Positions 3,101 through 27,116 are shown, counted from the first letter of the stretch. The stretch: DNA of 38,693 bases from Bacteroidales bacterium (GCA_017998135.1 JAGODS010000002.1:1-38693), one strand, 5' to 3'. The notes: generated from the sequence alone by a model not told the origin. A program made the numbers and translations.

Positions 3101-6100
3101 TTAGCAGGCTCATCAAATTTTTATGATATAACTATTTCTGCCAATACATTTATGATGTTGCAATATCTTTCAACTATAAGTATTGCAGGTTCTTTAACCA
3201 AAACAGGTAATCTGGATGCAGGTACTTTTGAAAATACTTTCATTTATAATGGAACACAGGATCAGACGGTTATATTGCCAGATAATCCTGCTCCTAATTT
3301 TTATAATCTTATTCTTACTGGTACAGGTACTAAAACTTTGCCCGCTGTTGATTTGTTAATTAATAATGATTTGACTCTTTCTGGTACCGCTATTGTTGAG
3401 CCTGTTAATGCCTTATATATTAAAGGAAATTTGAATATTGGCAATGGAGCTTCTTTTACAGCAGGCAGTTTAACTCATACTATTGAAGGCGATTTTATTA
3501 ATAATGGCAGTTTTAATGGAGCAGGCAGTTCACTTATTATTAATGGGACAAAGGCTCAGACTATAGGAGGAACAACCCCCCCCAACCTTAATAATTTATC
3601 TGTTTCTAATACAAGTAATATTGTTACTGCTGCTGTAAACCTAAATTGCACAGGCGATTTCAACAATGAGGGGGTTCTGGATATGACTGATTATACTCTT
3701 TACGTTAACGGAGCTGTTTTAAATGCAGGTACTGTAAAAACTGCATCAACAAGTCCCGCTCCCCTGCCCTTAGGCAAAACCTGGGGCGGTACAGTTGAAT
3801 ATACTGTTGCTACTGGTTCACAAGAAATTGCGGGAGGTTCTTTTAATAATCTTACTTTGTATAATTCTATTGGAAATAATACTGCAAATGGTAATTTAAT
3901 TATTAATAATGGAACTTTATATATAACGGCAGGTGGTACTTTAGATATGGCTACTAATACTTTATCGGGTTCAGGTATTTTTAATAATAATGGAATGATT
4001 AAAACCGCTGTTACTACAGCTTCCTCTTCTACTCCTTTGCCGGTTGGTAAAATATGGAATGGAACTATTGAATACACTGCTCTTACAGGTTCACAAACTG
4101 TGGTTAGCGGTTATTATAATAATCTTAAATTACTTAATACAAGCGGAATAAATATTGCAGGCGGAGATATTGATATTAATAATGAATTAATTACAACTTT
4201 AGGGGGTACTATAGATATGGGTTCTGCTTATGTATTATCAGGTGGAGGTACTTTTAACAACAATGGTATTATTAAAACATCCGTGCCATCCGTTATTAGC
4301 TCTATACCTATACCATCAGGTAAAATATGGGGTGGCACCATTCAGTATGACGCAGTTAACGGTTCCCAAAGTATTGTTTCAGGAACCTATAATAATTTAA
4401 TAATTAGTAGTACTTCTGGGGTTAATACTTTAGAAGGTAACATTACTATTAATAATACTTTTAATTCTGCAAGCGGTGGAACTATTAATACTGAATATGA
4501 TATTAACTTTAATTGTTCTACAACCTGCGGTCAAATTATTAATGCATCTGCAGGTAACGTTAATTATTCTGTTTCTGCTATTAATATTTTAGAAGGAACT
4601 TATAATAACATAGAAATTAATAGTAATCCTGCTCATTTTTGCGGAGCTACAATTATAAATGGAAATTTTGCTCCCTCTGGTATTCTTAACCTTAGTAATA
4701 ACTTAACCTTAAATGGTTCGGTTGTTTGCGGAGCAGGTCTTATTAATGCTTTATCAGGGTCGGTTATTTATGCTATATTAACTGGTGGACAGAATGTAAT
4801 ATCAGGAACTTATTATGATTTAATGCTTAATAATACAAGTGGAATAAATACTGCCTGTGGTAATCTAACTGTAAATAATAATATTTCAACAGTTAATCAT
4901 GGGACTCTTGATATGACAACATTTCAATTGCTTGGTTCACTTAATACAATATCAAACAATGGTATTATAGAAACTGCCAATACATCTGCAAATCCAATCC
5001 CAGCGGGAAAAAACTGGGGTGGTATCATTGAATATTATGGTAATATATCTCAAAAGGCAGTGGGAGGTACTTTCAGTACTTTGGTTGTTAGCGGTACAGG
5101 AGGGGCTATTGCTACAGGTAATATTGTTGTTACTAATGATTTGCGACTTAATAACAATAACCCATCTTCTAATCAAGGTTTACTGGAAATGGCAAGCTAT
5201 ACACTCAATATGGGAGAAGCTGCCATAACCACTGGCATTGGTGATGTTACGGGCATTGTTAAAAGACAACATACTTTTTTAGGAAATATACCTTATACTT
5301 TTGGTAGCGAATTCAGCTCTATTACTTTTGTTAATTATCCAGGTAGTATTAAACCGGGATGGCTAAGTTGCAGGATTACCATTGGATCGGCGCCTGAATG
5401 GAGAACTCAGGCTGTTAAAAGATATTATAGTTTTGCAAAAGATGGAGGTGATGACAGAACAATTATTAATTTAAGATATTTGGACAGCGAACTGGATGTT
5501 GCCGAACCTGTTGAATCAAATCTGGTTATTTGGTGTGCGATAGGTCCCTCACCTGACTGGAATAATATTACAGAAGTCGGTAAATCTAACAATGATATTA
5601 ATAATAACTGGCTAAGTCTGGCAGGAGGTTCTATTCAAGGTATTGCGCCTTCTTCTTCTTTAGATTATAAACAAATTAGTTTTAGTTATTCTGATGTTAC
5701 AAAAATAATTTGGACAGGATTAGGAGTAGATGGCGAAGATTGGGCTCTACCCGGTAACTGGAACGGTGGCGTGCCTTCAGAAACGGATGATGTATATATT
5801 CCTGCCGGCGCCCCATTTTATCCTACTAAGAATTCAGATGTAATAAATTTTCCTGCTATAATAAATTCATTGGAAATTGAAGAACAAGCTTCTGTTACTA
5901 CTACTAATTTTGATATAACTATAAAAGGTGATGCAGGCGCCTGGATTAACAGAGGTTCTTTTTATCCTGAAACAAGAACAGTTACTTTTGCCCCTGTCTC
6001 AGTTGAAAATATCGTTTCAATTTCAGGAACAACTAATTTTAATAATTTGGCAATCGCCGATAATGCATATTTTCAGCCTCTGGCAGATGCTTATATATTA

Positions 6101-8501: not shown

Positions 8502-9881
8502 ATGAATTTACCTTTTACAGAATCTTATAAAATAAAAATGGTTGAGGCTATTAGAAGAAGTAGCCGGACAGAACGTGAACAATGGATGAAAGAAGCAGGC
8601 TATAGCTTGTTTTGTTTGCGTAGCGAGCAGGTCTTTATTGATTTGTTGACAGACTCGGGCACAGGAGCTATGAGCGATAAACAGTGGTCTGAGATTATGC
8701 TCGGCGACGAAAGTTATGCTGGCGCTAATTCTTTTTTCAAACTTAAAGAAGCTATTAAGGATATATTCGGCTTTGATTATGTATTGCCTACACATCAAGG
8801 CAGGGCTGCTGAGAATGTATTGTTTTCTACATTGATGAAAGCTGGAGACCTGGTGCCGGGCAATTCGCATTTTGATACTACCAAAGGACATATAGAATAC
8901 AGAAAAGCAATAGCAGTTGATTGCACTATTGATGAAGCTTTTGATACGACAATCTATCACCCTTTTAAAGGTAATATCGATTTGAATAAATTAGAAGCAG
9001 TTTTAAAGTCCAATCCTGCTGATAAAATACCTTTTATACTTATAACCGTAACCTGTAATACCTGTGGCGGTCAGCCCGTTTCATTACAGAATATTAAAGA
9101 TGTGTCGGCGCTGGCGAAAAAATATGGAGTGAAAGTTTTGTTTGATTCGGCGCGCTTTGCTGAGAATGCTTATTTTATTAAGACAAGGGAGGAAGCCTAT
9201 AAAAATAAAACTATACGCGAAATTGTTCGTGAGATGTATGCTGAAGTGGATTTAATCACAATGAGTGCCAAAAAGGATGCAATAGTAAATATTGGAGGTT
9301 TTATTGCTTTCAGGGACGAGGATATATATAAACGTGCCGGAGTAAATAATATAATTTTCGAGGGTTATCTGACTTATGGCGGACTGGCTGGCAGGGACCT
9401 TAATGCAATAGCTCAGGGATTAAGGGAGGGAACGGAGTTTGATTATCTTGAGACAAGAATAAAACAAGTGGCTAAATTAGGACAGGAATTGAAGGATTTT
9501 GGAGTACCTATGCAGGAGCCTTTTGGCGGGCATGCTATCTTTGTTGATGCAGATAGATTTTTTAGTCATATTCCGAGGGAGCAGTTCAGGGCACAGACTC
9601 TTGCTATTGAGCTTTACCTTGAAGGCGGAGTTAGAGGCGTTGAAATAGGCGGGTTGATGATAGACAGAGACCCTGTTACAAGGGAGAATCGTTACCCAAC
9701 TAATGAGTTTTTGCGTCTCGCTATACCCCGCAGGGTATATACGGATAATCATATTCATTATGTCGCTATCGCACTTGCTAATGTCTATAATCGAAGAAAA
9801 GAAATAACCAAAGGGTTTAGAATAAAATGGGAAGCTCCTATAATGAGGCATTTTACAGTTAAATTAGAAAGAGAAATTTGA
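8502..9881 (+). CDS. tnaA: tryptophanase / tyrosine phenol-lyase family PLP-dependent beta-eliminating lyase
   Basis: Full-length 459 aa. Contains YKIKMVE, VFIDLLTDSGTGAMSDKQW, LGDESYAGA, PTHQGRAAENVLF and the PLP-lysine motif MSAKKDAIVNIGGF (KK at nt 9270-9275). Tryptophanase and tyrosine phenol-lyase cannot be separated by eye. Confidence 0.85.
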   Translation: MNLPFTESYKIKMVEAIRRSSRTEREQWMKEAGYSLFCLRSEQVFIDLLTDSGTGAMSDKQWSEIMLGDESYAGANSFFKLKEAIKDIFGFDYVLPTHQGRAAENVLFSTLMKAGDLVPGNSHFDTTKGHIEYRKAIAVDCTIDEAFDTTIYHPFKGNIDLNKLEAVLKSNPADKIPFILITVTCNTCGGQPVSLQNIKDVSALAKKYGVKVLFDSARFAENAYFIKTREEAYKNKTIREIVREMYAEVDLITMSAKKDAIVNIGGFIAFRDEDIYKRAGVNNIIFEGYLTYGGLAGRDLNAIAQGLREGTEFDYLETRIKQVAKLGQELKDFGVPMQEPFGGHAIFVDADRFFSHIPREQFRAQTLAIELYLEGGVRGVEIGGLMIDRDPVTRENRYPTNEFLRLAIPRRVYTDNHIHYVAIALANVYNRRKEITKGFRIKWEAPIMRHFTVKLEREI

Positions 9882-10000
9882 AAATGTGCTGATGTAACCT
9901 CACCCTAACCCTCTCCTAAGAACAGGAGAGGGAATGTGCCGATGTGCCAATGTGTTAATCTGCTAATTTGCTAATTTGCTAATTTGCTAATCTGCTAATT
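9882..10000 (+). repeat. composite intergenic repeat: 8-bp-period array + palindromic CCTCACCC/CCCTCTCCT element + 8-bp-period array
   Basis: AATGTGCT GATGTAAC (9883-9898) comes first. Then CCTCACCCTAACCCTCTCCT-aagaac-AGGAGAGGG (9898-9932), which has a 9-bp perfect stem. Then 8.5 units follow: AATGTGCC GATGTGCC AATGTGTT AATCTGCT AATTTGCT x3 AATCTGCT AATT (9933-10000). The block starts 1 nt after the tnaA stop. Confidence 0.9.
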
Positions 10001-10028
10001 AGACAATTTAAATTCTCTGTTGACTAAT

Positions 10029-11459
10029 ATGCATAAAAAACTTATTATTTTTTTTAGTTTTTTTTTATTCGCTCTAATAGTAATTATTGGGACGTGTTCT
10101 TTGCCAATGTTTTGGGATATGACTTTTTACAGTCATTTAGCTTGTAATATTTATGATAATAATTTTTCTTTATCATCATTATATCTGCCAGCCGAAGCCG
10201 ATAATGGCAATCCACCCCTATATTCATTATATCTTGCCCTCTTATGGTCGTTTTTCGGTAAGTCTCTTCTTGTAGCTCACCTGGCAGCTTTACCTTTTAT
10301 TGCAGGTATTATATGTGAAATTAATAAATTAGTCAGCTTTTTCAAAGGTTCTGACAAGCTTTTGATTTTGTCTCTGCTAATATTAATTGCAGAGCCGACT
10401 TTCAGTACCCAGGTTTTGCTTGCAGGTTTTGATTTGGCTTTTGCTTTTTTGTTTTTACTTAGTCTTAATTCAATACTCAATAATAAACGAACTTTACTTG
10501 CAATAGCGGTTTTATTTATTGGATTAATTAATTTAAGAGGTTTGTATTTTGTATGTTCTTTATTTGTTATTGATATTTTATATAATAAATTTATACAAAA
10601 AAATAGCTTTTCGTTAAGTAAATTTTTACCTTATCTGCTTTCGTTTATAGTATTGCTAATATGGTTATACTTTCATAAGATTGAAACAGGCTGGTATATT
10701 ATCTCTGCTTTTAACAAGAAATTGTTTTTTATCCCTAATATTGAAAGATTTTTCAGAAACATTTTTTATGTTATTTGGAAAATAGCAGATTTCGGAAGAA
10801 TTATTTTGATAATAATTATAATAACAGGATTTATTACATTATATAAAAGGAATAAAAGATGGACTAATGAAATGAAGTTAATAGCTTTAATAATAATTAC
10901 TCCAGTTCTTATATATATATTATTATTTGGTTGGCATAGTTATCCTGTAGCGCACAGGCATTTTTTACCTTTATTTATTATTCTTGTCGTTTTTTCGGTT
11001 TATATTATTGAATTAATCAGTAAACTTTATTTAAAGACGATAATTTATGCAGGTGTTATACTAGTTCTTTATACTGGTAATAATTTGTATTATCCTGAGC
11101 GTTTCGGGAATGGCTGGGATTCGTCTCTTAAGTGTATAGATTTTTTCCCTGTGTATAGAGATATTGATTCTATTTTAAAAGCGCATAATATCAAACCTGA
11201 AGAGGTAGGAAGTAAATATCCTTTTCAGCAAAATTATAAATATGCTTACCTTGATAACAGGAATTTTTGTTTTGCAGATTTAGCTGAGCATCCTATTGAT
11301 TCTGTTAAATATATATTCTATACTAATGTTAGTAATAATTTCACAGATGCAGAGAGACGATATTTAAATACTGCAAAACAAGTTATTTATAAATATAAAA
11401 AAGGTAGGGTAGAGGTGATATTTTACAAATGTGCCTATGTGCCAATAAATAAAAAGTAA
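10029..11459 (+). CDS. polytopic membrane protein, possibly a GT39/ArnT-like glycosyltransferase
   Basis: At least 10 hydrophobic helices, with an early loop LPMFWDMTFYSH reminiscent of the D(E)-containing first loop of GT-C enzymes, and a soluble C-terminal tail. The track start at 10020 is TTG; ATG 10029 is preferred. The functional call is weak. The last codons (KCAYVPINKK) are encoded by two units of the 8-bp repeat family. Confidence 0.5.
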   Translation: MHKKLIIFFSFFLFALIVIIGTCSLPMFWDMTFYSHLACNIYDNNFSLSSLYLPAEADNGNPPLYSLYLALLWSFFGKSLLVAHLAALPFIAGIICEINKLVSFFKGSDKLLILSLLILIAEPTFSTQVLLAGFDLAFAFLFLLSLNSILNNKRTLLAIAVLFIGLINLRGLYFVCSLFVIDILYNKFIQKNSFSLSKFLPYLLSFIVLLIWLYFHKIETGWYIISAFNKKLFFIPNIERFFRNIFYVIWKIADFGRIILIIIIITGFITLYKRNKRWTNEMKLIALIIITPVLIYILLFGWHSYPVAHRHFLPLFIILVVFSVYIIELISKLYLKTIIYAGVILVLYTGNNLYYPERFGNGWDSSLKCIDFFPVYRDIDSILKAHNIKPEEVGSKYPFQQNYKYAYLDNRNFCFADLAEHPIDSVKYIFYTNVSNNFTDAERRYLNTAKQVIYKYKKGRVEVIFYKCAYVPINKK

Positions 11460-14007: not shown

Positions 14008-14490
14008 TTATTTCTTTATATATGTTTTATTTCCATTACTATTGATATAGTATTGACCTCCTCTGGCACCTGTATGTATGGTTCTGCCAGAATTATTATT
14101 ATAAGAAGGAGATGAGAAAAAATTAGAATTGTTATATGTTGAATTGCTGTTATATGTAGGATATGAATTAATTGTTTTCGTAGAATTATATTTTCTTTCA
14201 TTAGCAGTTTTTGTTTTGTGAAGTTCCGTTGGGATTAATTGCATATTTTGAAGTTCATCCTTTCCTCCCTGAGATAAAGGGATTATATGATCTACCTGAT
14301 AGCCTTCAGGAACTTTGTCAAAGCCTTTACTTTTTAAAAATTCTTTTTTTACAGTAGTACTTCTCTCAACTTTAGGATAGCCTGTAGTTTTATAGGTTTC
14401 ATTATTTATATTAAATGATTTGTTTTGAGCAAAAGAACTAAATAAAAAGATTGTAAGAAAAATAGAAATAATACAGAATTTAGATTTCAT
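14008..14490 (-). CDS. signal-peptide HNH nuclease with a C-terminal basic GxRGGxYYIN tail
   Basis: Signal peptide MKSKFCIISIFLTIFLFSSFAQ. HNH motif YQVDHIIPLSQGGKDELQNMQLIPTELHKTKT. N/S/Y-rich linker. C-terminus GRTIHTGARGGQYYINSNGNKTYIKK resembles the PBCV-type basic adaptor motif. Confidence 0.75.
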   Translation of the reverse strand: MKSKFCIISIFLTIFLFSSFAQNKSFNINNETYKTTGYPKVERSTTVKKEFLKSKGFDKVPEGYQVDHIIPLSQGGKDELQNMQLIPTELHKTKTANERKYNSTKTINSYPTYNSNSTYNNSNFFSSPSYNNNSGRTIHTGARGGQYYINSNGNKTYIKK

Positions 14491-15224: not shown

Positions 15225-17633
15225 TTATATAAAAGTAACGAGTGTTATACCGTCTCCGCCTTTTTCGGGCTCTTCATCATTAAAACTTTTTACATAGCTA
15301 AGTTTTTTAAGATAATCTCTGATGACCTGTCGTAGTATGCCGCTTCCTTTGCCATGTAATATTTTAATTTCTTTTATATTAATAAGTAATGCATCGTCAA
15401 TATGTTTTTGAACTATTATCAGCGCTTCATCAGCTCTTTTGCCTCTTAAATCAATAGAATAATGAAAGTTTTTTGTTTTTTCATTAATATCATTAGTAGA
15501 AAAAGATTTTTTTTCTGTAACAATTTTCTCTTTTTTTTCTGTTTTATCCAATTCACTTACAGGCAATTTGATTTTGTATTTATCAAAAGCTACTATTGCA
15601 AAAGTTTCATAAATATCTAAAATTTTACCTACTTGTGTTTGTCCTTTCATAATTACTTTATCCCCTTTTTTAAATATTGGAATAATATTTTCCTGATTTA
15701 TTTTAAACTGTATTGTTTGCTTAATGCTTTTATTAATAGCAATAGGGTCTTTAATATCTTTAATTTGTTTTTCAAAATTTTTAATTTTCTCTCTGAGGCT
15801 TTTAGTATTTTCTTTATCAGCCTGTGTTTCCTTTATTTCTTTGACAGTATGTTCAATAATTTTATTAGAATCGGCAATAATTTGGGAGGCAGTTTTTTTT
15901 GCATCTTCAATAATTGTTTTAGAAGATTTTTGAAGATCGTTGTATAATTTAGTGTATTTTTTTATAACTTCAGCCAGTATTTCGTCAGCAGCTTCCACCT
16001 GGTTTTTCTTTAAATCGTATTCTTTTTTTCTAAGCGATAGGTCGTCTAATTGTTTTTCGAAATCTATATGTTTAATATTAAGTTTTTTCTCAGCATTTTT
16101 AAGAATGCTTTTTTGAAAACCAATTTTACGGGCAATCTGGAAAGCGTAAGAACTGCCCGGTGTTCCGGTTTTTAAAAAATAAGTCGGTATGAGTTTTTCT
16201 TTATCAAAACTCATAGCACCGTTTAGGATACCGTTTTTTTTACCTGCAAGAAGTTTAAGGTTAGTATAATGAGTAGTTACAATACCCAAAGCCCCTCTTT
16301 CTTTAAGTTCTTCCAGTGCAGCTTCAGCAATAGCAGCGCCTAATGAGGGTTCGGTTCCGGAACCAAATTCATCAATAAATAAAAGAGTGCGGTTGTCGGA
16401 ATAATTAATAAAATGTTTAATACTTAATAAATGAGAGCTATATGTGCTTAAATCATTTTCAATAGACTGTTCATCACCTATTTCAAGAAATAAGTTGTTA
16501 AAAATACCTGTATGGTATGAGTTTTCGGAAACAGGAATAAGAAATCCGCATTGTAGCATATATTGAATTAAAGCAACAGTTTTAATACATACTGATTTAC
16601 CACCTGCATTAGGTCCTGAAATTACTAAGATCCTGTCAGTAGAATTTAACCGAAAATCATTAGCAATTATTTTTTTATCCTGCTTATTAAGCGATAATTC
16701 TAAGTAAGGATGCCTTGCCGCCTGCCAGTTAATAATGCTTTCATCAGTTAAAAGGGGTTTAATCGAATTGGTTTTAATTGCAAATCTGGCTTTACTATGA
16801 ATAAAGTCAATATTACCAAGTTGATTAAAGGCTTCGACAATATCATTACAATAAGGCCGAATAAAATCGGTTAATTCTAATAGAATTTTTTGAATTTCGC
16901 GTTTCTCGGCATATTCTAATTCTTTAATTTCATTATTAATTTCAACAATTTCGTCAGGTTCAAGAAAAACAGTATTACCACTTGCGGATTCATCCTGAAC
17001 AATACCTTTTAATTTCTTTTTATTAGAGCTATTAACAGGTATTACAGCCCTTCCGTTTCTGATAGTGGGCAAATCGTCGGCATTGGACCAACCTTCTTTT
17101 TTAGTTAAATTAAGATAATAATTAACTCTTTTTTCCAGGGAATGTCTTTTACTGATAATAGTTAATCTTATTTTTTTCAGTTCAGATGAGGCATTGTCTT
17201 TGATTCTTCCTTTTTCATCAATAATATTATTTATTTTACCGAGAATTAATTTTTCGCAACCCTTTGTTTTAATAAGAGTTTGAATACTTTGATATTCTTT
17301 AGCTTCACTGATAAAATTAAATGTTTCAATGAGTATATTAAGACTTAAACATAATTTATGAAGATTATCAGTATCAATAAAGGTTCCTTTTGTAGAAATT
17401 CTTTTAATTTCTCCGGTTATATCAAAGTATTCGGATAAAGGCAGGTGTTTGATTGAAATTAGCTGTTTTATCTCATCAACCAGATTAAGCTCATCTTGTA
17501 TAAAATTAAAATCAGAAGAAAAGGAGATATTTTTAGCTTTTTTCTTACCTAAATCTCCAAAACAATTATCAATAATTATATCTCTAATTTTGTCGAAATC
17601 AATCTTTTTTTCTAAATTTTTTGGATAAATCAT
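15225..17633 (-). CDS. mutS2: endonuclease MutS2 (MutS domain V ATPase + C-terminal Smr)
   Basis: 802 aa. Walker A VISGPNAGGKSV, LLFIDEFGSGTEP, VTTHYTNLK, a central coiled coil, and a C-terminal Smr domain IDLRGKRADEAL..ILHGKGSGILRQ. Confidence 0.93.
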   Translation of the reverse strand: MIYPKNLEKKIDFDKIRDIIIDNCFGDLGKKKAKNISFSSDFNFIQDELNLVDEIKQLISIKHLPLSEYFDITGEIKRISTKGTFIDTDNLHKLCLSLNILIETFNFISEAKEYQSIQTLIKTKGCEKLILGKINNIIDEKGRIKDNASSELKKIRLTIISKRHSLEKRVNYYLNLTKKEGWSNADDLPTIRNGRAVIPVNSSNKKKLKGIVQDESASGNTVFLEPDEIVEINNEIKELEYAEKREIQKILLELTDFIRPYCNDIVEAFNQLGNIDFIHSKARFAIKTNSIKPLLTDESIINWQAARHPYLELSLNKQDKKIIANDFRLNSTDRILVISGPNAGGKSVCIKTVALIQYMLQCGFLIPVSENSYHTGIFNNLFLEIGDEQSIENDLSTYSSHLLSIKHFINYSDNRTLLFIDEFGSGTEPSLGAAIAEAALEELKERGALGIVTTHYTNLKLLAGKKNGILNGAMSFDKEKLIPTYFLKTGTPGSSYAFQIARKIGFQKSILKNAEKKLNIKHIDFEKQLDDLSLRKKEYDLKKNQVEAADEILAEVIKKYTKLYNDLQKSSKTIIEDAKKTASQIIADSNKIIEHTVKEIKETQADKENTKSLREKIKNFEKQIKDIKDPIAINKSIKQTIQFKINQENIIPIFKKGDKVIMKGQTQVGKILDIYETFAIVAFDKYKIKLPVSELDKTEKKEKIVTEKKSFSTNDINEKTKNFHYSIDLRGKRADEALIIVQKHIDDALLINIKEIKILHGKGSGILRQVIRDYLKKLSYVKSFNDEEPEKGGDGITLVTFI

Positions 17634-17960: not shown

Positions 17961-20027
17961 ATGAAACAACAATATTATTTTACCCGAATAATAGCTATTT
18001 TTGTAATAGTAGTATCATTATTTGCTTGTAAAAAGGATAAGGATGACAACAACTCAGATAACAAGCCGGCACCAGTGCCTACAGATAAGGAAAAAATTAT
18101 TTCAAGTAAGGAAGGTATTATAGGTTCTGGCGGTGGTAAAGTAATACTTGATGACAGCACAAGCGTAATTATTGCAGCAGGCGAATTAAATGCCGATGCA
18201 AAAATTGTAATAAAAAAGATAGGTAATGAACAAATTTTTGCAAAGGAGAATCGTAATTGCTACGAGATAACAGGCATACCCAAAGGCGCAAAAGCGACTT
18301 TAACTTTTTTAGTTCCCAAAGACTTGTTAGCGGATTATGTAGGGGTTTTTGCCTATAATCCAACCGACCTGTCAGGTTCGTCAATTACTAATCAATATAC
18401 TGCTTCAGAAGGTAAAATCACAGTTAGTGATTTTATATTTGAAAAGAAAAATAAAGGGGAAGAGCCGAGTTACCGGCGTTGGATAGTTGAATGGGATACA
18501 CCAGAAATAAATGCAAACCCGGGCGAAGAAAAATTAATACCTATGCCTTATTATGAACAGATAGGAGGCACCTGTTGGGCAGCGGCAACATTGATGCAAG
18601 CTAAAGCATATATTCCATATTCTGACCGTAAAACAGAAATAAGTATTAAAGACTTTATGAAAGATCTTAAAATTGACTTAAACGACGGGCTTGGTACTTT
18701 TACTTTTATGAAAGTTCTGCCTTATGTATATCATAGTTTAACTAAAGGAGCCGGAGCAACAACAATGACTTTCTGGAATAAAAGAAATTATATTAAAGAA
18801 CTCGTAAAACGACTTAAGGAAAATAAACCTATAGTATTATATTTACCGAATTACAGACACGGAGTATTGGCAGTAGGTTACAGAATACCTGCAAATGCAA
18901 CGAGTGTTGACGAATATGAATTTGTCCTTCACGACCCCAAAGGAACAATACCTCAAACTGCCAAAGACGGGGGTATGTATTCAGTAAGAACCGGCGAATG
19001 GTTGTTTAAAGATGCATACAAATTAGATTGGTTTCTAATAATGTATCCGGATGCACCAGTACACAATGAGCGCAGTCTTCAAACAGTTTTACTACCAAGT
19101 TATCCACATCAATCTGAAATATCGTTTAATGCTTTAATAAATTCCAAATGGACATTGATTTATTTACAATTTGATAAAGATAAAAAGACCGGATATAAAT
19201 GGGCGACCCAGACAGGAACCGAATATGAGGTTATCCCATCAACATTAAATAAATTAACCCTTAATTTACAACTATACAATGCCGACCTTGAAAAACCTAA
19301 AAATGTAAATCTTCAGATAACAATTCATAATAAAAAGAAAGATAAAACAACTTATGATAAAATAATTCCATTGACACTGTTAACAGACAAAAATAAAAAG
19401 ATGTATGAACTATCGCTGGATACTAATTTATGGCTCAAAAATTTCGGTGATACTACCAAAATAGATTATAACATAGAAATAAAACTGACAGACCCGGCCA
19501 ATTCTCTCTATCTTGACGGCTTTAATCTTGATTTTACAGTTAAAGGCTCTAAAGTTGATAAATATATTACATCTTTTCAATCAAAAGAATTAGATAATTG
19601 TCCAATAAACTTTGATAAATCAATAAAAGCGAATTTACAGTTTTTTATTAACGGAGATAAATTCAGAACAAAAGAAATATTTGGACCTAATGATTTAAGA
19701 ATTTATGTTCCTAAATTTCCAAATGGAGTAATGGAATATAATTTTAATGTTACTATTAATTATGATAATATAACACTTGATACATTGATCAACCCAAATT
19801 TTAAAGGCTATGACCCCATAGTAACAAAAACAGAATATATATTGGACTATATAAGTTATCCGCTTGAAAATAGTTCTATTATAGAAGTTCCGATAAAAGT
19901 AACAAAAAATAATCTGGAATTTTATTTACGCTTACATATAGGAGGGAAAAAGCAAACAAATGGCAGCAACTCAAGCTGGTCTGCTTTTCCTGACCTCTTG
20001 CATCTAAATTTTTGGTTTGACGAATAG
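17961..20027 (+). CDS. lipoprotein with papain-like (clan CA; C10/C39-like) cysteine peptidase signature, paralog A
   Basis: Lipoprotein signal IVVSLFAC followed by KKDKDDNNSD. Catalytic-type motifs are IPMPYYEQIGGTCWAAATLMQ (Cys205, nt 18573-18575), YRHGVLAVGY (His300, nt 18858-18860) and VLHDPKG (Asp325, nt 18933-18935). A ~330-aa beta-rich C-terminal extension follows. Alignable end to end with the ORF at 21366-23417. Confidence 0.7.
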   Translation: MKQQYYFTRIIAIFVIVVSLFACKKDKDDNNSDNKPAPVPTDKEKIISSKEGIIGSGGGKVILDDSTSVIIAAGELNADAKIVIKKIGNEQIFAKENRNCYEITGIPKGAKATLTFLVPKDLLADYVGVFAYNPTDLSGSSITNQYTASEGKITVSDFIFEKKNKGEEPSYRRWIVEWDTPEINANPGEEKLIPMPYYEQIGGTCWAAATLMQAKAYIPYSDRKTEISIKDFMKDLKIDLNDGLGTFTFMKVLPYVYHSLTKGAGATTMTFWNKRNYIKELVKRLKENKPIVLYLPNYRHGVLAVGYRIPANATSVDEYEFVLHDPKGTIPQTAKDGGMYSVRTGEWLFKDAYKLDWFLIMYPDAPVHNERSLQTVLLPSYPHQSEISFNALINSKWTLIYLQFDKDKKTGYKWATQTGTEYEVIPSTLNKLTLNLQLYNADLEKPKNVNLQITIHNKKKDKTTYDKIIPLTLLTDKNKKMYELSLDTNLWLKNFGDTTKIDYNIEIKLTDPANSLYLDGFNLDFTVKGSKVDKYITSFQSKELDNCPINFDKSIKANLQFFINGDKFRTKEIFGPNDLRIYVPKFPNGVMEYNFNVTINYDNITLDTLINPNFKGYDPIVTKTEYILDYISYPLENSSIIEVPIKVTKNNLEFYLRLHIGGKKQTNGSNSSWSAFPDLLHLNFWFDE

Positions 20028-20035
20028 CTTAAAAT

Positions 20036-20066
20036 AAAATACAAATGCAACCTTTTTGTATTTTTT
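20036..20066 (+). terminator. weak A/T-rich hairpin after paralog A (possible leaky terminator)
   Basis: AAAATACAAA (20036-20045) pairs with TTTGTATTTT (20055-20064) around a 9-nt loop, then TTG. There is only one G:C pair, so read-through into the serpin gene is plausible. Confidence 0.3.
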
Positions 20067-20123
20067 GTTGTCTATATTATAAAAATTAAATAGTTTTACT
20101 TTATAAAAATAAATGAAAAATAT

Positions 20124-21359
20124 ATGAAAAATACTGTTATTTGCCTGATATTATTAGGCTTTATGAGTGTATCCTGCCAAAAGAAAGAAAATGGAGAAAA
20201 TAATCTTCCCGACCCTATTAATGTCAATTTTACTGCAAAGGAGAAAAAACTTGCAGAGAGCGACAATCACTTCGGAATAGAATTTTTCAAAGAATTAAAC
20301 AGTAAAGAAGAGGCAGGTAAGAATATAATGGTATCGCCATTAAGCGTTGCGCTTGTATTAGCTATGATATATAACGGTGCGGATACCGATACCAAAACAG
20401 CAATGGAAAAAGCATTGTTACTTGAAGGAATGACAAGGGAAGAGATAAATAATTCGTATAAAGGATTAATATCTAAATTACAATCTTTAGACCCTAAGGT
20501 ATTGTTTGGTATAGCCAATTCAATCTGGTACAGGGATGATTTTCCTGTTTTGCAGGAGTTTATAAATACCAATAAAACATATTATAATGCTGAGGTAACA
20601 GCACTTGATTTTAACAATCCGTCATCTGTAAATATAATAAACAACTGGGTTGCCTCAAAGACCAATAATAAGATAAATAAAATAATAGACGAAATAACTG
20701 CTGAAAACATAATGTTTTTAATAAATGCAATATATTTTAAAGGAATATGGAAATATCAGTTTGAAAAGAAGAACACCAAGCCTTATCCTTTTCACCTGGC
20801 TGATAAAACAGTTAAAAACGTTGATATGATGGAGCAGAAGGCTGATTTTATGGTTTATAATGATAAAATTTTCAGAGCTGTAGAATTACCTTATGGTAAG
20901 GGGCAATATTCAATGCTGGTGTTGGTGCCTACAGAAGACTATACTGTTGAAGATATAATATCACAACTGACAAATGAGAACTGGACAAAATGGTGTAATA
21001 ACCTGACTCCTATTGAAAAGATGATAGTAGTACTGCCTAAATTCAAATTTAAGTATGAGAAAAAATTAAATGAAGTATTGATAAAAATGGGTATGGGCAT
21101 AGCTTTTGACAATAATGCCGATTTTAGCAAAATTAATCCAGATGCGGATTTATTTATATCCAAAGTATTGCATAAGACTTATATAGACGTTGATGAAGAA
21201 GGCACCGAAGCAGCAGCGGTAACAGTAATAGTAGTAAATACAACCTCAACTTTGGATAATTATTTCATAGCCGACCGCCCTTTCCTTTTTGTAATCAAAG
21301 AAAAGAATACAAATGCAATGCTCTTTATGGGAAAGGTAATGGAACCTAAATATGAATAA
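20124..21359 (+). CDS. serpin (inhibitory type), lipoprotein signal
   Basis: 411 aa. Contains FGIEFFKEL, NIMVSPLSVALVLAMIYNGA, NAIYFKGIWKYQF and the hinge/RCL EEGTEAAAVTVIVVNTTSTLDNY, followed by FIADRPFLFVIKE (nt 21195-21300). N-terminus MKNTVICLILLGFMSVSC-QKKENGE. Confidence 0.92.
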   Translation: MKNTVICLILLGFMSVSCQKKENGENNLPDPINVNFTAKEKKLAESDNHFGIEFFKELNSKEEAGKNIMVSPLSVALVLAMIYNGADTDTKTAMEKALLLEGMTREEINNSYKGLISKLQSLDPKVLFGIANSIWYRDDFPVLQEFINTNKTYYNAEVTALDFNNPSSVNIINNWVASKTNNKINKIIDEITAENIMFLINAIYFKGIWKYQFEKKNTKPYPFHLADKTVKNVDMMEQKADFMVYNDKIFRAVELPYGKGQYSMLVLVPTEDYTVEDIISQLTNENWTKWCNNLTPIEKMIVVLPKFKFKYEKKLNEVLIKMGMGIAFDNNADFSKINPDADLFISKVLHKTYIDVDEEGTEAAAVTVIVVNTTSTLDNYFIADRPFLFVIKEKNTNAMLFMGKVMEPKYE

Positions 21360-21365
21360 TGGGAT

Positions 21366-23417
21366 TTAATTATCAATATTAATGCCTGAGCTAAAAACAG
21401 GATTAAAGATATAAAAACATCCGGTGCCATCACTTTTAGTGTTGATATTCATATAAGTTTTAAAGCTGATTTCTTTATTATTTTTATCAATAGTAAGAGG
21501 TATATTCCACTCATTACCTGAGAGAGTCAGCCCACTTCCAGGATTAGGAATAAAAGAAGCAAAAGCAGAATAAACGACCATATCATCGCCATCGCATTCT
21601 GCACCTGGTAATTTCTTAATGTTGGATATTTTAATATTAAAATTATAAGTAACAGGGCTGCCTGTTACTTCAGGGATAGTAATTCCAGACGAGTAGGGTT
21701 TAAACCTGAATTTGCCTCCGCTGACAGAAGCATCAACATCAACAGAACATTTATCTATACCGAATTCAGTAAAAGTAAGTGTATATGTAGGAAAAGTATA
21801 AGAAGTAATATATTTTTCAGGTTTTTTCCAGTCAAGAGTAAAATTAAGTGCCCATCCGTCAAGATAAGTATTAGAGCCAGGAAAAGAAAGTTTAGTTTCC
21901 AATTTATAAGGCACAGGTTGGTCCATTGTATATTTACTGCTAATCCATTGAGCTGTATCAAGAGAAAGGTTAAATAAATATGGAGTTCTGTCATTGGGTA
22001 ATGTAACAGGGAAAGTATTGTCATAAGTTATTTTATTAACTTTTGTATCAGTAATTTTAACATTAAAATTGCATGCTATCTGCTTGTCAAGATTTGCATT
22101 ATAAAGTTGAAGCTTCATAATTAGCTTATTAGTTGAAGCGGGTAAATAAGTAAAAGGATCTTTATTAGGCTTAACCCAGCTATAACCGTCTTTAGCTTTA
22201 TAATCCCAAAAAAGATTAACAGTACCTTTTGAACCTTTATCAGTAAGATATTCAAATTGTAAATTATGAGAGCCTTCAATAGAGGGTAAACTAACAGTTT
22301 GCAAAGTTCTGTCGGGGTGAGGCGGATTATCTGAATATAAAACGGATAACCAGTCAAGAGTAGTAATCCCATCTAAAATCCAGCTCCATTTACGGTTTGT
22401 GTACATAGTGCCTTCCTTGGAATTTGGAGGATTTATTCCCTGGCTGTCATGCAGTATCAATTCCCAGTCCTTGCATTCTTTATCTAAATTAACTTTATAA
22501 CCAACAACAAGGACAGCATGTCCTTTATTAAGCATTTGCAGTATAGACGGTTTTCCCTGAGCTAATTGTGTAACAATTTCGCAAACCGCATTATCCATAA
22601 TAATAAAAGTTTTAGCAGTAGCGCCAGCGCCCCCAGAAACAGTATTAAATGCATAAGGAAATTGTTTAAGAAAGGGTTGCCATTTAATACCAGCATCAGT
22701 TTCTATATTCATAGCTTTAAGGAAATCTTTAATTTCCATTTCTTTTTCTCTGTTAAAGTATGGAGTGTATGATTTAGCAAGCATAGTAGCATCAGCAGCC
22801 CAGCAACTACCAAGAATCTGTTCGTAATAGGGCATAGGAATAAGTATTTCAAGTTCACCCGGCTTAGGTTTATCGCCCCATTCTACTATCCATCTTCTAT
22901 ATTTGCAACCGGATAATTTTTTCTGCAAAGTATAATTTTCAACCTTTATAATTCCCTTATCAGCATCATAGCTAAAGGGGGGCATAATGCCGTTAGGTAT
23001 TCCTGCATCGGGGTCATAGTTTAAAACGCCCACTAAAGCAGGGTCCTTATCTTTAGGGCAGGCAAAATTAAAAGTAACGACAGTTCCCTCAGGCAGTCCG
23101 GTAATATCATAAGAATACTTGTTATAATCGCCGAAATTTTTCTCTTTACCAATTTTAGATAATTTGATTTTGGTATCGGCATTTAATGCATTAGCAGGGA
23201 TTACAATATTAGAGTTGTCAGACAAGTTAAGAGTACCGCCTTTACTGCCAATAGTGGCTTCGGCTGAAGCAAGGACAGTTTCACTTGTTGCAGGCGGAGG
23301 AGTTACATTATTATTGTCATTATCATCTTTATCTTTTTTGCATGAGTTAAAAGAAATAGATAAAAGCATTACAATCAATAACAATAGGCTGTTTAAATAA
23401 TTTTTTATCGTTTCCAT
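21366..23417 (-). CDS. lipoprotein with papain-like cysteine peptidase signature, paralog B
   Basis: Signal LLSISFNSC followed by KKDKDDNDNN. Motifs are IPMPYYEQILGSCWAADATML (Cys205, nt 22803-22805), KGHAVLVVGY (His300, nt 22518-22520), ILHDSQG and a shared YRRWIVEW. Its stop lies 6 nt from the serpin stop (convergent). Confidence 0.7.
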   Translation of the reverse strand: METIKNYLNSLLLLIVMLLSISFNSCKKDKDDNDNNNVTPPPATSETVLASAEATIGSKGGTLNLSDNSNIVIPANALNADTKIKLSKIGKEKNFGDYNKYSYDITGLPEGTVVTFNFACPKDKDPALVGVLNYDPDAGIPNGIMPPFSYDADKGIIKVENYTLQKKLSGCKYRRWIVEWGDKPKPGELEILIPMPYYEQILGSCWAADATMLAKSYTPYFNREKEMEIKDFLKAMNIETDAGIKWQPFLKQFPYAFNTVSGGAGATAKTFIIMDNAVCEIVTQLAQGKPSILQMLNKGHAVLVVGYKVNLDKECKDWELILHDSQGINPPNSKEGTMYTNRKWSWILDGITTLDWLSVLYSDNPPHPDRTLQTVSLPSIEGSHNLQFEYLTDKGSKGTVNLFWDYKAKDGYSWVKPNKDPFTYLPASTNKLIMKLQLYNANLDKQIACNFNVKITDTKVNKITYDNTFPVTLPNDRTPYLFNLSLDTAQWISSKYTMDQPVPYKLETKLSFPGSNTYLDGWALNFTLDWKKPEKYITSYTFPTYTLTFTEFGIDKCSVDVDASVSGGKFRFKPYSSGITIPEVTGSPVTYNFNIKISNIKKLPGAECDGDDMVVYSAFASFIPNPGSGLTLSGNEWNIPLTIDKNNKEISFKTYMNINTKSDGTGCFYIFNPVFSSGINIDN

Positions 23418-23857: not shown

Positions 23858-23956
23858 CAAAACACTATAATTTTATAGTCCCAATAAATGCACTTTAAAA
23901 GCTGCGCGTGCCGAAAAGCAGTAATAAAAGAAGTAGGCGAATTAAATTTATACTTT

Positions 23957-26008
23957 ATGAAAAAATTTGTATTTTATTTTAATGTATTGCTGATAATGAT
24001 ATCAGTAACAAAATTATTCGGACAAGCTCCTGAATATTTTAAATATCAGGCAGTGGCAAGAGATGTTAACGGCAATCTCATAAAAGAACAAAAAGTAAAA
24101 TTAAGAATTACTTTATTAAAAGGAAACATTTCCGGACAAGAAGTCTACACGGAAACACATAGTGTTACAAGTAATCAATACGGTTTGTTAAATATAGAAA
24201 TAGGTAATGGAGCTGAGAAAAAAGGCATATTATCAGAAATAAACTGGGGATCGGATATTTATTTTATAAAGAGCGAGATAGATATCACAGGAGGAACGAA
24301 TTATTTAAACTTAGGAACAAGCCAGTTATTAAGCGTTCCTTATGCCTTATATGCTAAGAAGGCTGAAACGATTACCGGTTCACTCCCGTCAATAATAAAA
24401 AATGATTCTCTGGTATTAAAAGATTCGCTTGGTTTTACACGAATGGTTTTTAATCCAAATTCAGGCAGTTTTAAGATGATGAATAAAGATACAGTATGGT
24501 ATGAAATAAGCGTAAAATCGCCAAAATTAACTTGTTATAAAATTTCAGATAATCAATATATGATAAACAAGGTAGAAGGTAATTCAGAAATATTTGAAAT
24601 ATATACATCTGGGAATTTACAAGGAAGATTAATAGAAGAAAGGGATTATACATCAGAAGGTTATGTGGTAAATAATAAGACACATGAATTTTATGCTAAA
24701 GACCCAGAAAGCAATGATATAAAACTATCAAAAAAAATAGAAGAGAAAGAATTAACAGATATATTCTATGATTCAGGGACAAGAACCGAAACAACAACAA
24801 TAGAAACAATCTATAACAATGGAAAAGAAAGTGAATCTACAACCAAACATAAAAATGTATTGCATAATTTATACAAGGAGATAACAAAATCTACAGAAAC
24901 AACTATATACAAACAATATGATAAAGACCATAATCTAATGATAGATAAAAAAACCGAAGTAGATAACTTAAAACATACTAAAAAAGAATATATAAAGACG
25001 ATGTTAGGAGGCGAGGAACAATACTATCTTGTAGAAGAAGAAAAAGATCCAGCAAAACAAGAAGTAAGTAAGACAGTAAAAAATGCAAAAGGAGAAGGCA
25101 CAATAATAAAACAAACACCTGATAAAATATTAATTTCCAATACAGGGTCTAATGCTCCAAGTATAGAATATACTTATGATGATTATCTTGGAAAAACTAC
25201 AATATACTCAATAAATAAGAACCAAGACAAACAACAGTTATTAGAAATATTAAACGATGCATTAAATATAGGAACTAACGGCAATATACAAACTACAGGC
25301 AATCAGACTAATTTAACCGGTACTATAACCAATACAGGAAATACGTCTTTTCAAGGTACTACTTACCACAACGGTACAAATTATTTTAATGGCAACATTT
25401 ATGGCAATCAAGCACAATTTAATGGAAATGTGAAAATAGGGGAATCTTCATTAAAACCCGGTGATTTACAATGCTCGGGAAATGCAGTTATTGAAGGAAA
25501 AACCAACATCAATGATAATACAGAAATAAAAGGGAGCCTAAATGTAAAAGGAGATTTATCAGTAGGAGGCAAAATGGATTTTAGCGAAGCAGACCTAAAA
25601 GTAGGTAATTTTAAATCAAATTCTGATATATCAGCAGCAGGGATAAAGAAATTCGTGATAGACCATCCAACAAATCCAACTAAATTAATACAGCACGCTG
25701 CGATAGAGTCAAATGAGGTATATAATCTATATACAGGAATTGTTCAAACTGATGATAAAGGATTTGCGAACGCCATTTTACCTGATTATTTTCAAAATAT
25801 AAATCTTACGAGCGGGATTAATTATCAGCTAACAATAAAGAGTTTTAATTTTGTTCAGGCGATAGTATATGAGGAATATGATTACGAAACCAATGCTTTT
25901 GTAATAAAAACGAGCGCACCTAATACAGAAGTACACTGGCAAGTTACAGCCAAACGTAATGACAACTATTTATTAGGCTATCCTTTTAAAGATGTGATAG
26001 ATAAATAA
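23957..26008 (+). CDS. secreted tail-fibre-like / adhesin-like protein
   Basis: Start moved to the MKKFVFYFNVLLIMISVTKLFGQ signal peptide (the track start at 23888 adds 23 non-signal residues). The N-terminal module FKYQAVARDVNGNLIKEQKVKLRITLLKG..GQEVYTETHSVTSNQYGLLNIEIGNG is typical of Bacteroidota fibre-like proteins. The middle is K/E/T-rich, followed by a G/N/T-rich repeat stretch. The C-terminal FVIDHPTNPTKLIQHAAIESNEVYNLYTG..LPDYFQNIN..YQLT..VHWQVTAKRND resembles the conserved C-terminal domain of tail-fibre-like proteins. Confidence 0.7.
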   Translation: MKKFVFYFNVLLIMISVTKLFGQAPEYFKYQAVARDVNGNLIKEQKVKLRITLLKGNISGQEVYTETHSVTSNQYGLLNIEIGNGAEKKGILSEINWGSDIYFIKSEIDITGGTNYLNLGTSQLLSVPYALYAKKAETITGSLPSIIKNDSLVLKDSLGFTRMVFNPNSGSFKMMNKDTVWYEISVKSPKLTCYKISDNQYMINKVEGNSEIFEIYTSGNLQGRLIEERDYTSEGYVVNNKTHEFYAKDPESNDIKLSKKIEEKELTDIFYDSGTRTETTTIETIYNNGKESESTTKHKNVLHNLYKEITKSTETTIYKQYDKDHNLMIDKKTEVDNLKHTKKEYIKTMLGGEEQYYLVEEEKDPAKQEVSKTVKNAKGEGTIIKQTPDKILISNTGSNAPSIEYTYDDYLGKTTIYSINKNQDKQQLLEILNDALNIGTNGNIQTTGNQTNLTGTITNTGNTSFQGTTYHNGTNYFNGNIYGNQAQFNGNVKIGESSLKPGDLQCSGNAVIEGKTNINDNTEIKGSLNVKGDLSVGGKMDFSEADLKVGNFKSNSDISAAGIKKFVIDHPTNPTKLIQHAAIESNEVYNLYTGIVQTDDKGFANAILPDYFQNINLTSGINYQLTIKSFNFVQAIVYEEYDYETNAFVIKTSAPNTEVHWQVTAKRNDNYLLGYPFKDVIDK

Positions 26009-26038: not shown

Positions 26039-27116
26039 TTAATTATCTAAATATATCTGAACAATCAAAAACAAATCACTATAAGAATGATTTAAAGGGT
26101 TGCCTTTTTCGTCATAACAGTCTAAAATGATACTGAAAGAAAATTGTAAGCCTTTAGACTCTTTATCAATTCCAAAAGAGACATTCCAAATCCCAGAATT
26201 ATTTAGACTAATTTCTCCAGAACCACAAGTATATGATACTTTTTTAATATATGGAATATATTCGGCAGGTGGGTTCCATGGACCTCTGTTAATAATAATA
26301 TTAGTTAAACTTATTTGCATATTATAATTGACAGTGGGATTTTCTACATAAACCTTAGGGACATAAATTCGTAAGAATTTAGCATTTCCGTATTAAATAT
26401 CTTTGTCAATTCTAAGTTTATACCCTTCAATACTGAAATAATAATCGGCTTTAAAATATTTATTGCAAATAAAAACTGAATTTTGAGGGGAGTCGTAAGA
26501 GCTGACGTATTTGTATTCAAATTTAGCGCCTTTAACCATAAAAGCGACTGACCAGCCGTCTAAATAGTTATCAGCAAGACCTGAAGTAAGCTTACATTCA
26601 AGCTCGTATGGTATAAGGTTAGTGTCACCGAAATTCTTAAGCCATTCGGCAGTGTCAATAGAAATAGCCTGCAGAACACCTTTTCGGTCAGTTCCAAGAG
26701 TAACAGGATAGCTTTTCTCGAAGGTAATTTTATTCTTTCTTGTATTAGTAATTTTGATTTTAATATTACAGTCTTTAGAGTTGTTCAAATCGGCATTGTA
26801 ACATTGCAGATTAAGTTTAAGAGTTTTAACAGAAGCGGGAATAGTATCAAAGGGGGTCTCCATTAGGAGCAGCCCATCTGTAGCCGTCCGGTTTGTTATT
26901 ATCCCATAAAAGATTAATTCTTCCGGGTTTATCATTTTTATAATAAACAAAACTCATATTTTGAAGGGTGCTTGGTTCACCGGGAAAGCCAATAGTCTGT
27001 AAAGAACGGGCTGAATGCACTGAACTACCGGGGTACATAATCATATACATAGTAGTAGCAGCTTTGTCTTTAAGGAATCAGCTCCATTTTCTGTAAGTGT
27101 ACATAGTTTCTTTAAA
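26039..27116 (-). pseudogene. decayed, 5'-truncated third paralog of the protease-like lipoprotein family (C-terminal half only)
   Basis: Reading the minus strand gives KETMYTYRKWS*FLKDKAATTMYMIMYPGSSVHSARSLQTIGFPG.. (compare EGTMYTNRKWSWIL..LSVLYSDNPPHPDRTLQTVSLPS in B). It continues ..KTLKLNLQCYNADL.., ..YLDGWSVAFMV.., ..LRIYVPK.. and ..GSGEISLNNSGIWNVSFGIDKESKGLQFSF. Lesions are an in-frame TGA at 27078-27080, a frameshift at a G5 run (26852-26856), and an in-frame TAA at 26393-26395. The signal peptide and the Cys/His domain are absent. Confidence 0.8.

Follow-up and report, generated by a model that had tools for sequence, protein, structure and literature searches.

Two paralogous lipoproteins with a C39-like papain-fold domain and a miropin-type serpin between them in a Bacteroidales genome: a pairing confined to one lineage

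Secreted proteases whose gene adjoins, on the same strand, a gene of an inhibitor class are known from the staphopain/staphostatin pair and from the KLIKK proteases and potempins of Tannerella forsythia. The latter species also carries miropin, a surface-anchored lipoprotein serpin of broad target range, whose targets include serine proteases along with papain, the calpain-like Tpr and the gingipain Kgp, and whose proposed role is to protect the proteins of the cell surface against proteases of foreign origin (bioRxiv 10.1101/2025.09.05.674453). Zhang et al. (2012, PMC3482391) described ZU5 domains, which they regard as autoprocessing domains, as the N-terminal part of enzymes that bacteria export, among them peptidase toxins of the papain-like kind from Bacteroidetes. 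The present analysis concerns a stretch of 38,693 nucleotides from a Bacteroidales bacterium (GCA_017998135.1 JAGODS010000002.1:1-38693, taken whole and referred to below as the window), in which the gene of a lipoprotein serpin lies between two genes, here called A and B, of paralogous lipoproteins whose relatives and predicted structure support the presence of a C39-like domain with the papain fold of clan CA. Both components are of known kinds, the one a C39_2-like papain fold and the other a miropin-like serpin; unlike what is seen in the staphopain/staphostatin and KLIKK/potempin systems, however, the pairing here is confined to one lineage.

A reading made from the sequence alone (hereafter the sequence-only reading) had proposed that the three genes form a dedicated module of surface-tethered cysteine proteases and their serpin. 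The comparisons set out below lead us to consider it rather probable, instead, that A and B are exported and probably surface-displayed cysteine peptidases of a ZU5/C39-like type, that the serpin is an independent shield of the miropin type, and that the three genes belong to a variable stretch of surface-protein genes.

The three open reading frames (ORFs; Table 1) lie where the sequence-only reading had placed them and have the lengths and spacings it gave: 96 nt separate the stop of A from the start of the serpin gene, 6 nt separate the stop of the serpin gene from the stop of B, and all three products bear lipoprotein signals. A and B are 36% identical (54% positives) over 652 amino acids (E=3e-126, BLASTP), in an alignment that spans residues ~38 to ~670; this similarity is far beyond chance and means paralogy, and the computed identity falls inside the 35-45%, end to end, that had been estimated by eye. 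The motifs that had been picked out are all present in both proteins: KKDKDDN just after the lipobox Cys (from residue 24 in A and 27 in B), YRRWIVEW (at 171 in A and 173 in B), PMPYYEQ (at 194 in both), and Cys205 and His300 in both. The one correction regards the Asp of the LHD motif, for which a single number had been given: it is residue 325 of A, as stated, and residue 324 of B.

The assignment of these proteins to a family comes from their relatives. A word-indexed search yielded 10 of them, mostly from metagenome-assembled genomes (MAGs) of Bacteroidales, three of which carry Peptidase_C39_2 (PF13529), and an exhaustive profile search extended the family to 485 representative clusters (50% identity) at E<=1e-3, with 88 at E<=1e-30, most of the 485 sharing profile positions ~10-530. 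When 62 divergent members were sampled, Pfam recognized Peptidase_C39_2 in 39 (best 1.1e-10), Peptidase_C70 in 15 and BtrH_N in three, and the first two of these families were also found among 11 close homologs (6/11, best 2e-5, and 5/11, respectively); all three are families that we take to belong to the papain-fold clan. Residue conservation, counted over ~130 representatives mutually <=50% identical, places Gln200 in 134/137, Cys205 in 135/137 and His300 in 138/139, while the Asp325 position is occupied by D in 101 and by N in 20 of 122; across the 11 close homologs the four positions are invariant. With Peptidase_C39_2 the paralogs have in common the order Gln...Cys...His...Asp and the contexts PYY-Q-x4-C and H-x-V-L-V-x-G-Y, although A and B themselves are below detection by that model and their domain is embedded between the ZU5-like and beta-sandwich domains of a lipoprotein. 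The family is spread over Bacteroidota, Chloroflexota and Bacillota, the public names of its members are all "hypothetical protein", and many relatives contain extracellular modules (TIG, PKD, SLH, LRR, dockerin) as well as lipoprotein signals. Several paralogs per genome are common in it, as in the tandem copies of a Bacillota MAG (L019, 32-2083 and 2424-6446) or in the Bacteroidales MAG KA792, with at least three family copies (P0003, P0008, P0011), as in the window.

With regard to the fold, the full-length model proved uninformative in Foldseek, where multi-domain beta-sandwich proteins (transglutaminases, arrestins, GH2 enzymes) filled most of the result at a template modelling (TM) score of ~0.13, and therefore the catalytic domain was modelled alone with AlphaFold, with a predicted local distance difference test (pLDDT) score of 76 and a predicted TM score (pTM) of 0.79. 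In this model the Cys is the first residue of a helix (41-51, domain numbering), the His the first of a strand (136-144) and the Asp stands right after the next strand (156-160), that is, a predicted papain-like alpha+beta fold with the Cys at the start of a helix and the His on a strand, in keeping with the fold that the sequence-only reading had supposed. The best matches among solved structures are UfSP1/UfSP2 (TM 0.56-0.62, probability 1.0), followed by a Josephin-type clippase (BpJOS), staphopain, SpeB, CtaG and calpain. Taken together with the Peptidase_C39_2 and Peptidase_C70 matches of the relatives and with the near-invariance of Gln, Cys, His and Asp (or Asn), these matches uphold the papain-fold, C39-like reading that had been proposed from the motifs. 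UfSP1/UfSP2 (MEROPS C78) and the Josephin-type deconjugating peptidases have the same Cys/His/Asp papain-fold site, but their identity to the modelled domain is just 11-15%. Their substrates are ubiquitin-like modifiers and they work in the cytosol of eukaryotes (or as effectors), whereas A and B are lipoproteins exported by a bacterium, for which nothing found points to a substrate of that type.

Other assignments fared less well. The likeness to C10 (streptopain) that had also been suggested was not sustained, as Peptidase_C10 is neither among the matches listed for the 11 close homologs nor among the first 25 families in the list for the 62 distant members, and the structural scores are weak (SpeB, E=0.11, TM 0.32; interpain, E=0.6). 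Peptidase C39 proper, the bacteriocin-processing domain fused to the N-terminus of an ABC exporter and accompanied by the gene of a double-glycine leader substrate, was rejected, because neither A and B nor the relatives contain a transporter domain and neither an ABC exporter nor a peptide precursor lies nearby. Transglutaminases also have a Cys-His-Asp site and belong to clan CA; they were rejected as well, since Transglut_core is not among the listed matches and the domain-level matches are peptidases. Searches of PDB sequences with A alone, with an 11-sequence profile and with a profile of the N-domain gave no usable match, and a 62-sequence profile reached the TIG domains of some relatives and, below threshold, cathepsin C and xylellain at the His motif.

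Around the catalytic domain, the full-length AlphaFold model of A (mean pLDDT 80.8) shows four parts after the signal peptide: a beta-sandwich (45-160), followed by a short disordered linker (163-168), the alpha+beta domain (170-370), and two further beta-sandwiches (374-530 and 536-688). The N-terminal one is ZU5-like, in that 13 out of the 25 family N-domains that were aligned match PF00791 (best E=4.5e-7); A and B reach ZU5 only by way of this family alignment, a direct match for A being absent. Autoprocessing by this domain is unsupported in the protease family, because no His-Phe-Ser or CxH motif is conserved and, at residues 44-69 and 125-199, none of the Ser, Cys or His residues is invariant; a partly conserved F-x-Y-D-x3-G of the family N-domains is absent from A. 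Thus, while A and B have in common with the ZU5 surface proteins and polymorphic toxins of bacteria (PMC3482391), Bacteroidetes included, an N-terminal ZU5-like domain followed by an enzymatic one, which in those proteins may be papain-like, and also export, they differ from them in having no RHS, SpvB or beta-propeller parts, no C-terminal toxin cassette and no conserved autoprocessing motif. The first of the C-terminal beta-sandwiches contains the conserved motifs LYNADL and YLDGW, with Asn440 in 124/127 and Asp519 in 91/95 of the family alignment, and in the Pfam scan neither of the two C-terminal domains of A was covered by any model. The ZU5-like N-domain, the two beta-sandwiches after the catalytic domain and the decayed third copy of the gene (Table 1) are new with respect to the sequence-only reading.

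The ORF between A and B encodes a serpin of full length (PF00079, E=5.8e-118, profile positions 2-370 of 370) with the lipobox Cys at residue 18, and so the 411-aa serpin with a lipoprotein signal of its own was correctly recognized. It matches 193 serpin sequences of the PDB at E<=1e-20, and the nearest solved relative is the miropin of T. forsythia (PDB 5ncs, E=7.7e-89). With miropin (5ncs and related entries) it has in common the lipoprotein signal, the presence of a T-S pair within the reactive loop, and the hinge EEGTEAAAVT (residues 358-367), which is identical in the two and whose small residues at P15-P9 (G-T-E-A-A-A-V) allow loop insertion; to judge from its sequence, the hinge is intact and of the inhibitory type. 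The reactive loop, VVNTTSTLDN, differs from that of miropin in being three residues shorter, with VVNTTS against MVKTSS, and in the absence of a basic P1, the P1 here being probably Asn372, Thr373 or Thr374. Clusters related to this serpin number more than 6,683 at E<=1e-60; the proteins that match best are 50-59% identical, have 408-420 aa and come from MAGs of Bacteroidales and Bacteroidota, and in the homologs inspected the lipoprotein signal and the hinge are common to all while the reactive loop is variable. By these sequence criteria it is an ordinary member of a very common family of Bacteroidota lipoprotein serpins. The source organism appears, from the source names of related MAGs, to be environmental, in contrast to the host of miropin. 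The sequence-only reading had also pointed out that serpins can inhibit cysteine proteases across classes, and miropin is a case in point, as it inhibits clan-CA peptidases (bioRxiv 10.1101/2025.09.05.674453).

Whether these proteins form a module depends on how far the adjacency of their genes extends, and it does not extend far. The serpin adjoins a gene of the protease family only in two contigs (L005, L006) that are 98% identical to the window, and hence of the same species or lineage, where the order of A and then the serpin is kept. Around 12 other distinct family loci (L001, L002, L007, L008, L009, L013 and L015-L020, flanked on either side by 1-10 kb), whose MAGs are labelled Bacteroidales, Saprospiraceae, Draconibacterium, Bacillota, Dehalococcoidia and, in one case, Alphaproteobacteria, no serpin was found by tblastn (E<=1e-2) or in precomputed Pfam calls, and this is true even of L002, which has a MutS2 neighbour in common with the window. 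L030 carries a copy of B whose DNA is 91% identical; here the similarity to the window breaks off at the stop codon of B and 57 nt upstream of its start, and there is no serpin sequence in the 77 nt of downstream flank. Conversely, at the loci of serpin homologs (L021-L029) no homolog of A or B appears at E<=1, the neighbours being MsrAB, NUDIX and phosphoribosyltransferase genes, a beta-helix protein of the type IX secretion system (T9SS), further serpins and, once, a C25 peptidase; a metagenome scan for close serpin relatives gave 4 short loci only, which carry little weight. The neighbourhood comparison disclosed no conserved neighbour gene of any kind for the protease family. The adjacency therefore amounts to one evolutionary event, confined as it is to 98%-identical contigs and absent at the 12 loci and beside the 91%-identical copy of B, and the dedicated protease/serpin module of the sequence-only reading is not supported, an adjacency limited to this genome being the very pattern that, on that reading's own terms, tells against it; what the comparison shows is an arrangement of a single lineage, one that both the 12 family loci and the five serpin loci lack.

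Some observations on these neighbourhoods can be added. A MutS2 gene (MutS_V + Smr) adjoins A in the window and adjoins its 98% ortholog in L005, and in L002 it is found at 9854-10837, ~7 kb from the family homolog; the MutS2 side may be the ancestral position of the A-type gene, the serpin and B being later arrivals. In L029 (3758-9233) a serpin 53% identical to that of the window lies 185 nt downstream of a gingipain-like Peptidase_C25/T9SS gene, and in L027 (8001-16355) three serpin paralogs are found within 8 kb of one MAG. Two unrelated families of ~200-aa lipoproteins adjoin genes of the protease family, each in a pair of MAGs (L002, 116-724, and L017, 9332-9952; L007, 6476-7093, and L016, 9500-10126), one of them 47 nt upstream of the protease-family gene and with an acidic CNKDDDDD tether, the other ~175 nt downstream; these lipoproteins could be partners or inhibitors of the adjoining proteases. 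As for transcription, the spacer between A and the serpin, on the same strand, contains a single weak hairpin with a U-run and is compatible with or without co-transcription, whereas B, being convergent with the serpin, cannot share its transcript. Promoter and terminator scans gave nothing above shuffled expectation, and there are no tRNA genes in the window.

In the explanation that we favour, A and B would be cysteine peptidases of the cell envelope, probably displayed at the surface, in which Gln200 would serve the oxyanion, Cys205 would be the nucleophile, and His300 and Asp325 (324 in B) would complete the site; the beta-sandwich domains could position or bind the substrate, and the last of them would be the fast-evolving part that bears specificity. 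The serpin, by analogy with miropin, would act as a suicide-substrate shield against foreign proteases, and its juxtaposition with A and B would be a lineage-specific arrangement rather than a conserved protease/inhibitor module, so that the pairing is probably fortuitous. The paralogy of A and B, their fold class, the conservation of the catalytic residues, the identity of the serpin and the lack of conservation of its adjacency are results of the comparisons; peptidase activity, surface exposure and the functional independence of the serpin are what we infer. Several considerations weigh on the other side. Direct scans of Pfam and NCBIfam and a search of PDB sequences gave no significant match for A or B, with nothing in Pfam at E<=1, and because they match no profile themselves, their membership of the family is transitive, via the relatives and the predicted structure. 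The missing conservation of the adjacency is compatible with a functional link of recent evolution; the same-strand order of A and the serpin, with a weak hairpin alone in the spacer, and the lipoprotein signals of the three products would suit such a link, and miropin inhibits papain and Tpr, both of clan CA. Finally, the serpin side of the comparison is a small sample of five distinct contexts (L021-L023, L025/L026, L027/L028 and L029), several of them on short contigs. By analogy with miropin, inhibition of A and B by the serpin is biochemically plausible, without genomic support.

If the link were real, the serpin would have been recruited in this lineage as a dedicated regulator or self-protection factor of both peptidases, acting on the cell surface through cleavage of its loop and a covalent (thio)acyl complex. 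We regard this as unlikely, despite a tight arrangement, with the serpin on the same strand as A and almost abutting the convergent B, that is kept in the two independent contigs of the species, and despite lipoprotein signals throughout, an inhibitory hinge, and a nearest characterised relative whose targets include papain and the calpain-like Tpr. The serpin homolog just downstream of a C25 cysteine peptidase gene in L029 would also be in keeping with it, as would the unrelated small lipoprotein genes beside other family members, which would suit a general scheme of one protease type with changing partners. What speaks against it is that the adjacency, as a single event, is absent from the 12 other family loci and even beside a 91%-identical copy of B, that the serpin family exceeds the protease subfamily in spread by a factor of thousands and the serpin's orthologs have other neighbours, and that the reactive loop shows no feature tied to the specificity of C39/UfSP-type enzymes for small or Gly-Gly residues. 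A more elaborate form of the same idea, in which ZU5/C39-like peptidases anchored at the surface acquired a miropin-type serpin as their cognate inhibitor, self-protection or immunity factor, and the family is perhaps paired with interchangeable lipoprotein partners (the serpin here, the ~200-aa lipoproteins in L002/L017 and L007/L016), we hold to be improbable; it would mean that a bacterial serpin serves specifically a papain-fold enzyme of its own cell.

A different possibility is that the papain-fold domain is not a peptidase that degrades proteins. In lipoproteins that face the periplasm, it would act on the cell wall as an amidase or endopeptidase of peptidoglycan, or catalyse some other acyl transfer, and the serpin would be irrelevant to it. 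Among viral models (BFVD) the modelled domain does match phage C39-like endolysin domains and peptidoglycan-binding proteins (TM 0.48-0.55, probability 1.0), and there are weaker matches to the non-peptidase papain-fold proteins CtaG and AziU3, besides the BtrH_N of 3/62 members. To judge from titles in the literature, Peptidase_C39_2 is treated among the domains of phage endolysins, and the title of a recent paper (PMC13642728) reports a C39-like protein whose activity is not that of a peptidase. However, the best matches among solved structures are true peptidases and deconjugases (UfSP1/2, the Josephin-type clippase, staphopain), the relatives contain adhesion-type extracellular modules (TIG, PKD, LRR, dockerin), and the acidic KKDKDD that follows the lipid-modified Cys resembles the Bacteroidota surface-export signal that was reportedly described by Lauber et al. 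in 2016, so that enzymes of this kind seem to us a rather unlikely outcome. Lastly, a system akin to the polymorphic toxins, in which autoprocessing at the ZU5 domain would free a peptidase toxin against competitors and the downstream serpin would be the immunity protein, is very improbable: the peptidase domain is central and not C-terminal, B is convergent with the serpin, RHS or filamentous repeats are absent, no downstream immunity gene is conserved across the family, and neither is any ZU5 autoprocessing motif, A lacking even the partly conserved F-x-Y-D. In its favour are the joint occurrence of N-terminal ZU5 and papain-like peptidase toxins in Bacteroidetes (Zhang et al., 2012, PMC3482391), the position of the serpin immediately downstream of A on the same strand, the hypervariable last domain of B, and the expansion and decay of the paralogs.

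The explanation that we favour also takes in the condition of the surrounding DNA, where a pseudogene copy, a fibre-like ORF of 706 aa and the mosaic divergence of B are signs of flux in a variable stretch of surface-protein genes. The third paralog retains homology to residues ~337-650 only, with an in-frame stop (after YRKWS and before F) and a frameshift near 26850, its catalytic part being gone. When B is compared with its 91% homolog (P0006, in L030), the catalytic domain is identical in 207/207 residues while the last beta-sandwich domain falls to 70.6%, a pattern that suggests, at the level of sequence, that the C-terminal domain of B has been exchanged by recombination in the manner of a cassette or is under diversifying selection. 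Between B and the pseudogene, the 706-aa ORF contains Asn/Gly/Thr-rich repeats and has only weak matches to a Bdellovibrio mosaic adhesive trimer N-domain (1.5e-3) and to a bactofilin-like model (3e-3); it may be a fibre or an adhesin. Elsewhere in the window there are a giant ORF of 2620 aa with no Pfam match at E<=1e-3, and an ORF of 160 aa whose N-terminus resembles a signal peptide and which combines an HNH nuclease motif (2e-6) with a PBCV basic adaptor domain (5.5e-5) at the C-terminus; from its sequence the product is apparently exported, something unusual for an HNH protein.

Table 1. Genes, domains and other features of the window, with positions counted from its first nucleotide (MFE, minimum free energy).
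Feature	Position	Strand	Basis or detail
2620-aa giant ORF	131-7993	+	
160-aa HNH ORF	14008-14490	-	
MutS2 (MutS_V + Smr)	15225-17633	-	
Paralog A	17961-20027	+	688-aa lipoprotein ORF
A, signal peptide and lipobox SLFAC (Cys23), then acidic KKDKDDN tether	N-terminus of A	+	ORF reading
A, ZU5-like beta-sandwich domain, residues 42-162	18084-18446	+	homolog N-domains match PF00791; all-beta model, pLDDT 80-95
A, papain-fold (C39_2/UfSP-like) catalytic domain, residues 170-372	18468-19076	+	Gln200, Cys205, His300, Asp325
A, two C-terminal beta-sandwich domains, residues 373-530 and 531-688	19077-20024	+	all-beta model
A-serpin spacer, A/U-rich hairpin with U-run	20036-20064	+	MFE -7.2 kcal/mol, z=-1.56 vs shuffles; may be a weak terminator
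Serpin	20124-21359	+	411-aa ORF, lipobox MSVSC with Cys18
Serpin hinge and reactive-centre loop, EEGTEAAAVTVIVVNTTSTLDNYFIADRPF, residues 358-387	21195-21284	+	HMMER alignment to miropin
Paralog B	21366-23417	-	683-aa lipoprotein, architecture as A; Cys26 lipobox; Gln200, Cys205, His300, Asp324; convergent with serpin
B, last beta-sandwich domain	21366-21826	-	
706-aa ORF between B and the pseudogene	23888-26008	+	
Decayed third paralog (pseudogene)	26141-27107	-	tblastn pieces, E=3e-38; translations

If the pairing were functional, regulation of a cell's own cysteine peptidase by a bacterial serpin would be shown here for the first time, a possibility against which the comparative evidence argues. 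In either case the locus offers a cheap and concrete test case for the inhibition of clan-CA enzymes by the miropin-like serpins of environmental Bacteroidales. In broader terms, the analysis defines a sizeable and unannotated family of exported proteins, of ~485 clusters, in which ZU5-like, C39-like and beta-sandwich domains are combined with a conserved catalytic tetrad, and which may merit a description of its own.

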